This document shows, piece after piece, positions 25,420-25,735 of a DNA stretch of 64,000 nt. The stretch lies in assembly GCF_057098645.1 (NCBI RefSeq), contig NZ_CM169472.1; one strand, written 5' to 3'. The translations under genes and the position numbers were made by a program. The notes under the pieces were generated by a model. The model was not told where the DNA came from. It searched no databases and was given only the letters and a program-made list of their open reading frames with translations. Within the stretch, counting starts at the first letter, position 1. Each line of letters begins with the position of its first letter.

Positions 25420-25458
25420 TCAGACTCGTCCACGCCATTGCTACGAAACCTGACATTT

Positions 25459-25735
25459 TGATTCAAAATGTCAGGTTTGGTTTAATTGCCTGAATATTTA
25501 ATTTTCTTGGAATATGAATTTATTTTTTTGATTTTTATTTTTTTTAATTTGGTTGCATTTAACAACATGAGTGAAAGTTAATCACTGGTATGACCTTGGC
25601 GGTTAATCATTTCAAATCATGGGGTTATTTTACTTTAGCGAGAAATATCAACATGTTATGTGTTTTATTGAATTGAATGGGCTGTTTTTTTATGGAAGAA
25701 TTGAGGAAAACGTAGGAATCTGACATTTTGAATCA
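25459..25735. promoter_or_regulatory. candidate invertible DNA switch: 16-bp perfect inverted repeats flanking ~245 bp of AT-rich DNA
   Basis: TGATTCAAAATGTCAG at 25459-25474 and exact reverse complement CTGACATTTTGAATCA at 25720-25735; lies between recombinase stop (25748) and LuxR start (25419). Confidence 0.6.

Follow-up and report, generated by a model that had tools for sequence, protein, structure and literature searches.

A palindromic left site in the hyxS switch of hyxR and recurrent precise deletions of the invertible element in Escherichia coli

The hyxR-ipbA locus and its known switch

The window, by which we mean the whole 64,000-nucleotide stretch of DNA analysed here, carries the gene order hyxR, invertible element, ipbA and betA (Table 1). 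hyxR encodes a LuxR-family regulator, and ipbA (also called fimX or hbiF) encodes a tyrosine DNA invertase of the FimB/FimE type, the product of which scored 247.6 bits against NCBIfam NF007370 (cut-off, 221). A 701-bp query across the region was compared with 5,426 complete E. coli genomes, and 1,891 of them were found to carry the locus, beside betA and with flanks annotated as hyxR and ipbA (HbiF/FimX). Two of the 1,923 matching places of this query sit on plasmids, not chromosomes.

The locus is the published hyxS invertible element of hyxR; because this switch has been described in the literature, the present work refines a known system and does not report a new one. In the accessible literature, hyxS is described as an invertible element with 16-bp inverted repeats that is located near fimX and controls hyxR (PMC6083910, PMC6458436, PMC3789825), and its inversion is attributed to FimX only (PMC6083910, PMC6458436). 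The same papers trace the hyxS/FimX(IpbA)-hyxR switch of extraintestinal pathogenic E. coli to Bateman and Seed 2012 (cited in PMC6083910, PMC6458436). In pathogenic E. coli, hyxR has been reported to affect nitrosative-stress tolerance, macrophage survival, O-antigen chain length and serum resistance. The locus studied here agrees with published hyxS in gene order, in its 16-bp repeats, in the size of the element (about 270-280 bp), in having a recombinase of the FimB/E family and in occurring in both orientations; the UTI89 reference genome has the element in the same orientation as the window. What goes beyond published hyxS is the dyad anatomy of the left site, the single-base-pair polarity and the recurrent natural excision alleles. 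The accessible hyxS literature (e.g., PMC6083910, PMC6458436), the primary description aside, makes no mention of a palindromic boundary or of excision alleles. Natural hyxS excision alleles appear to be undescribed in that literature, and the symmetry of the site may already have been described by Bateman and Seed 2012. The accessible literature places the hyxR promoter inside the invertible element, from where it would drive the gene in one orientation only; our consensus scan of the element found no sigma-70-like promoter in either orientation.

The surroundings of hyxR in the window differ from those in most other genomes, where the order is hyxR-hyxA-hyxB. An IS3-family element lies directly 3' of hyxR; there is no hyxA, and of the hyxB/upaB autotransporter gene a C-terminal open reading frame is all that is left. 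Two further perfect palindromes occur nearby, one of them longer than the palindrome at the hyxS boundary.

Table 1. Features of the hyxR-ipbA region, with positions in the window
Feature	Position	Strand	Remarks
Perfect palindrome	20941-20981		20+1+20 nt, CTGTAAATATCCTGGCATTAGTAATGCCAGGATATTTACAG; left of the truncated hyxB/upaB ORF
hyxB/upaB, truncated	21927-23009		C-terminal ORF
IS3-family element	23199-24412	-	orfA 24086-24412, orfB 23199-24089
Perfect palindrome	24499-24525		13+1+13, GCACGCTGTACAGGCTGTACAGCGTGC; between the IS3 end and the hyxR 3' end
hyxR	24625-25419	-	LuxR-family regulator; ORF and RefSeq annotation of homologous loci
Left recombination site of hyxS (putative arms and centre below)	25446-25478		33 bp, perfect 16+1+16 palindrome
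Left outer arm	25446-25458		half-site, read towards the centre, common allele: CAAAACCTGACATTTTGA
Left centre	25459-25465		TGATTCA, central T 25462
Left inner arm	25466-25478		half-site, read towards the centre, common allele: CCAAACCTGACATTTTGA
Left 16-bp inverted repeat	25459-25474	+	TGATTCAAAATGTCAG, centre and inner arm; reverse complement of 25720-25735
hyxS invertible element	25459-25735		277 bp, repeat to repeat; majority orientation (A) here
Segment missing in A-type deletions	25462-25731		270 bp
Segment missing in T-type deletions	25463-25732		270 bp
Right recombination site of hyxS (putative arms and centre below)	25717-25749		imperfect palindrome
Right inner arm	25717-25728		half-site, read towards the centre, common allele: AGGAATCTGACATTTTGA
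Right centre	25729-25735		TGAATCA, central A 25732
Right outer arm	25736-25748		degenerate, GAAGGTACTGTTT; half-site, read towards the centre, common allele: TAAAACAGTACCTTCTGA; adjoins the ipbA stop codon 25748-25750
ipbA (fimX, hbiF)	25748-26311	-	FimB/FimE-type tyrosine DNA invertase; intact; A8 tract 25963-25970

Anatomy and conservation of the two boundary sites

The sequence-only reading that preceded this analysis had described the left boundary as a 33-bp perfect palindrome, lying 27-59 bp upstream of the hyxR start codon (ATG at 25419), and had counted three copies of a core, two direct and one inverted. All of this stood up to re-examination. The boundary consists of aaacctgacattttga-t-tcaaaatgtcaggttt, that is, two fully complementary 16-nt arms on either side of a lone unpaired T (also read as AAACCTGACATTTTGA-T-TCAAAATGTCAGGTTT), and the exact core CTGACATTTTGA occurs at 25450(+), 25463(-) and 25720(+). 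With one mismatch allowed, the core has four matches in the window, compared with 0.49 expected, and none of 100 shuffles gave four; a palindrome scan of the whole window yielded 16-nt arms here, whereas the longest arms in each of 50 shuffled windows measured 8-11 nt. Because both the number of core copies and the arm length exceed those of the shuffles, the palindrome is real, and a chance origin of the palindrome or the core repeats was ruled out by the two tests. Among records from complete E. coli genomes that match with an identity of 99% or more, 1,781 of 1,796, or about 99% of the intact alleles, keep the exact 33-mer, so that the palindromic arm is not something missing from strains with a working switch. 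The palindrome is a conserved, functional-looking left core site of the known switch.

The right boundary, AATCTGACATTTTGA-A-TCAGAAGGTACTGTTT, has the same arm-centre-arm design, and the inverted repeat common to both boundaries measures 16 bp, which is the hyxS repeat length given in PMC6083910. Each boundary can be read as the core layout of a tyrosine recombinase, with a 7-bp centre, TGA(T/A)TCA, between two arms: at the sequence level, two inverted arms surround, at both sites, a centre of a length within the canonical 6-8 bp, and the arm consensus, ...AAAC-CTGACATTT, is inverted about a putative 7-bp exchange region. At the left site both arms follow the consensus, and the perfect dyad there results from the outer arm having the sequence of the inner one; at the right site, one arm follows the consensus and the other is degenerate. 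Among the four half-sites, three share CTGACATTTTGA, two share AAACCTGACATTTTGA, and the fourth is the degenerate one.

The two centres, TGATTCA and TGAATCA, are mutual reverse complements, so that an inverted-repeat alignment of the sites pairs identical centres. In direct register, they mismatch at the middle base only; here, the sites match over 12+3 bp, CTGACATTTTGA[T/A]TCA, at a start-to-start distance of 270 bp, and a repeat finder returned the pair at 25450 and 25720 as the longest direct repeat in the hyxR-ipbA intergenic region. No greater symmetry than that of TGA(T/A)TCA is possible for a centre of odd length. The spacer asymmetry that gives a site its polarity is minimal, amounting to one central base pair, with T at the left and A at the right in all sampled intact loci. 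As judged from these letters, the inverted and direct pairings would be told apart by the central T:A base pair alone.

In the Cre/loxP system, spacer asymmetry dictates the outcome of recombination, and Hoess et al. reportedly found in 1986 that, when the spacer is symmetric, lox sites yield excision as well as inversion. Cre/loxP and hyxS are alike in having two inverted binding elements about a spacer, with the hyxS arms being putative. The loxP spacer is asymmetric, whereas that of hyxS is as symmetric as its odd length allows, with one asymmetric base pair; also unlike the Cre/loxP-type layout, the right site of hyxS has a degenerate arm. For tyrosine recombinases, a layout of arm, spacer and arm has been described, in which spacer asymmetry sets the direction of the site (PMC13174288).

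A closer relative is fimS, the switch of type 1 fimbriae operated by FimB/FimE, which, like hyxS, is a short invertible promoter element with adjacent recombinase genes. The near-palindromic core of K-12 fimS, TTGG-GG-CCAA, corresponds to TTGA-T-TCAA of hyxS, its arms carry AAATGT/AAACTGT-like motifs as in the hyxS design, and FimX is also active on fimS (PMC6083910). Unlike hyxS, fimS has 9-bp repeat cores, two asymmetric central bases and clearly non-identical arms; because of these asymmetric central bases and dissimilar arms, it contains neither a perfect palindrome nor a direct repeat longer than 4 bp.

Inverted and deleted alleles among complete genomes

The orientation seen in the window (A) was present in 1,778 of the genomes with the locus. 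The opposite orientation (B) was present in 17, with junctions as predicted for exchange within the 16-bp repeats (exactly so in the sampled loci L003, L023, L024 and L025), and in this orientation the left palindrome is reduced to 12+1+12 (25 bp). Two of these inverted loci carry mobile elements: an IS3 element lies inside hyxS in L003 (CUVET18-565, 1-1500), and IS66 and IS3 remnants replace most of ipbA in L025 (RM14721, 3911-7112). The latter replacement may have frozen the inverted state.

The sequence-only reading had proposed that a recombinase could use either pairing of the core copies, with inversion or excision as the outcome, and had suggested looking for excision junctions. Both outcomes were found: besides the inverted genomes, 89 of the 1,891 locus-bearing complete genomes (about 5%) carry an exact 270-bp deletion that joins the two direct core copies, which makes deletion alleles five times commoner among the assemblies than the inverted state. 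Deletions were counted with a 240-bp query representing the predicted excision junction, at an E-value limit beyond the reach of half-matches. In these 89 genomes the junction reads AAAC-CTGACATTTTGA-[T/A]-TCAGAAGG, which corresponds to the product of a precise deletion, where a lone hybrid site remains and the exchange falls inside the spacer. In each of the 17 deletion loci sampled, one core copy is left and exactly 270 bp are gone. The central base of the junction is T in 69 deletion genomes, as counted with a 47-nt probe seeding on T-centred junctions only, and A in the remaining 20 or so; because the left centre carried T and the right one A in every intact locus sampled, the two junction types reflect which parental central base survived. 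The reciprocal junction expected of a circle or tandem duplication (...GGAATCTGACATTTTGA[T/A]TCAAAATGTCAGGTTTGG...) was found in none of the genomes searched. An assembly artefact was considered as the origin of the deletions and was ruled out, as the junction recurs across laboratories, in related strains and on different haplotypes.

To compare haplotypes, we used 1.7 kb of flank on each side (3.4 kb) from the sampled deletion and intact loci. The deletion alleles are spread over at least six well-separated clusters of flanking haplotypes. T junctions were found in cluster c01 (2009C-3133, 13P477T, D10 and APEC O78:H4 E12049), in c06/c07 (SCU-485) and in c09 (C6, with 2 differences from intact J-8), and A junctions in c06/c07 (20Y000092) and c11 (PapRG-06-5). 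Cluster c05 contains both types, namely A in EC17, KE54, AVS0223 and REF2, which show 0 differences from the intact strain 2/0, and T in FDN-4, SA186 and AR_0089, with 1-2 differences. FDAARGOS_943, with an A junction, represents a separate haplotype, its nearest sampled allele being that of PapRG-06-5 (31 differences in the 1.5-kb right flank). Cluster c01 is itself polymorphic, in that a 100%-identical hyxR also occurs in genomes outside the deletion lists and in the inverted GPEC1035. Because the deletions lie on at least six haplotypes, some of them 0-2 SNPs from intact alleles, they must have arisen as recurrent events; T and A junctions are represented about 4:4 among the separate combinations of haplotype and junction type. 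The FDAARGOS_943 locus further contains IS2 in hyxR, IS600 beside a truncated hyxA and a frameshifted ipbA.

Core-to-core deletions of fimS were found in only 3 of the 5,426 genomes, about 80-fold more rarely than those of hyxS, and with three different, irregular junctions. In each of these natural alleles, from MY203L1 (L027), C11 (L028) and D8 (L029), fimS is wholly missing and the junction falls within the 9-bp cores; the three junctions read TT|TGGCCCCAA, TTGGGGCC|GGCCCCAA, which forms a 16-bp perfect palindrome, and TTGGGGCCCCAA, a 12-bp palindrome. This contrast shows that the directly oriented core copy contributed by the palindrome makes hyxS prone to clean loss. The comparison does not separate recombinase action from replication slippage as the cause of that loss, because fimS lacks both the spacer homology and the direct repeat.

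Origin and consequences of the deletions

We consider it probable that the palindrome serves IpbA/FimX as the full left core site of hyxS, and that its symmetry permits both inversion and excision. According to this explanation, IpbA/FimX would recognize the left and right sites, presumably by binding to their arms. Synapsis of the sites with identical centres (TGATTCA and the reverse complement of TGAATCA) would invert the 277-bp element, which is the known ON/OFF switching of hyxR. The symmetry of the left site, together with a centre that departs from a palindrome at its middle base pair only, would also let the sites synapse in direct register with one central mismatch; exchange in this register would excise a 270-bp circle, so that the invertible element would be lost for good, and would leave a hybrid site composed of the left-outer arm, a centre and the right-outer arm. 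Strand exchange at both edges of the 7-bp centre would leave the middle base pair of the product as a heteroduplex (T·T or A·A), replication of which would give T-type and A-type daughters. We infer that FimX binds the arms, that it cuts at either edge of the 7-bp centre, and that the excision is its work. The recombinase model accounts for the data with a single assumption, namely that FimX synapses the sites in either register.

As the cause of the deletions themselves, excision catalysed by FimX appears the most likely candidate, with the balance tipped somewhat in its favour. The junctions differ at the central base only and are about evenly divided between T and A among events, which fits exchange flanking that base and modestly favours the recombinase model. 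The main rival is recombinase-independent misalignment between the direct repeats CTGACATTTTGA(T/A)TCA at 25450 and 25720, possibly helped by a hairpin of the palindrome or of the 16-bp inverted repeats; the palindrome would then be relevant only through creating the direct repeat. We regard this as a possible origin, though a less probable one. A 12-bp perfect (16-bp imperfect) direct repeat with copies 270 bp apart is a substrate for RecA-independent slippage, the deletion endpoints fall exactly within the longest intergenic direct repeat, and a deletion, being irreversible, would accumulate even at a low rate. The rarity of fimS deletions is explained equally well by the missing direct repeat there, and the failure of the reciprocal recombination product to appear in any genome is also in keeping with slippage. 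Precise excision between short direct repeats flanking inverted repeats is known from slipped-misalignment deletions, and the hyxS deletions resemble these in having endpoints in short direct repeats tied to a palindrome or inverted repeat. What sets them apart is that a site-specific recombinase encoded next to the hyxS repeats has these as its cognate sites, and that in half of the junction types it is the 3-bp side of the mismatch that was used. Simple slippage predicts mostly A junctions, because a T-type junction needs a switch within the 3-bp TCA or mismatch correction, whereas T-type junctions make up 69 of the 89 deletion genomes and about half of the independent events. The T:A ratio is not decisive, because slippage together with mismatch repair could produce both types. 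Further points against slippage are that at least 6-8 independent fixations in about 1,900 genomes are many for a 12-bp repeat, and that a dedicated recombinase known for exactly these sequences is encoded 17 bp away. On the more specific proposition that FimX performs both inversion and excision, that the polarity of its sites hangs on one base pair, and that excision is a built-in irreversible exit which has been taken repeatedly, we find the evidence evenly poised.

The sequence-only reading had held that the palindrome could equally be an operator or a hairpin in the hyxR leader; this part found no positive support. The right site, built to the same design, lies outside any leader, inversion of the element leaves a palindrome of 25 bp, and no terminator signature is conserved. 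A lux box is a dyad of about 20 bp, bound by a LuxR-family regulator upstream of its target, and the position of the perfect dyad, 27-59 bp ahead of the start of a LuxR-family gene, invites the idea that the palindrome serves primarily for autoregulation by HyxR or for another dimeric regulator. Its outer bases, ACCTG...CAGGT, loosely recall lux-box ends, which we take as a lead only; the CTG-N19-CAG spacing in the 33-bp dyad differs from the 20-bp lux-box design, and HyxR falls into no curated family from which a binding site could be predicted. Moreover, the same design recurs at the right boundary beside the ipbA stop codon, where there is no promoter in need of an operator, and the perfect dyad is cut down when the element is inverted and halved in deletion alleles, so that a primary role as an operator seems very improbable. 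A hairpin in the hyxR leader RNA that attenuates read-in transcription from ipbA or the element, or that modulates translation or mRNA stability, is unlikely as well, if less so. Folding of the hyxR-sense RNA does give a 14-bp stem (minimum free energy of -31.3 kcal/mol over 101 nt, z = -4.6 versus shuffles), with at least 12 bp retained in both orientations, and such a role could coexist with that of a recombination site. However, no U-tract follows the stem on the hyxR-sense strand, and a recombinase site with dyad symmetry would give such a hairpin as a matter of course. Because the stem folds and persists in both orientations, a hairpin effect is possible as a side effect of the recombination site. 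An intrinsic terminator was also considered and rejected: the single call was on the + strand (antisense to hyxR), in the window allele only, and the sense strand has no U-tract. A terminator scan of the common allele gave no call in either orientation.

Deletion brings ipbA and hyxR to within 58 bp of each other on the same strand, and both open reading frames are intact in 16 of the 17 sampled deletion loci. As the lost element is the one said to carry the hyxR promoter, hyxR should after deletion be either silent or co-transcribed with ipbA, and should no longer be phase-variable. A different form of decay is seen in the O157-type allele, matched by about 345 genomes at 99% identity or more, in which hyxR has an internal stop and the A8 tract of ipbA is shortened to A7, a frameshift ahead of the catalytic His/Arg/Tyr residues (for example, at about position 3915 of the 28RC1 locus, L017). 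The ipbA homopolymer could itself be a slippage-prone point of inactivation. Ten sampled O157-type matches (at 99.9% identity or more) are all intact and in orientation A, and no O157:H7 genome is among the deletion or inversion matches listed. The O157-type allele was considered as a natural recombinase-null control and was dropped as evidence because the clade is clonal and young.

Control of hyxR has been thought of as reversible, and about one in 20 carrier genomes has lost the switch by a clean core-to-core deletion. The deletion alleles are natural 'locked' alleles for studies of hyxR function, and the 270-bp size difference offers a simple genotyping marker for loss of the switch. hyxS is also a tractable natural case in which spacer symmetry probably lets a DNA invertase yield deletions. 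If FimX indeed excises the element, ipbA and hyxR would be fused into one transcription unit and phase variation of hyxR would be gone; this exit would have been taken on at least six haplotypes and by about 5% of carriers, and would be common in the haplotype shared by avian-pathogenic O78:H4 strains.
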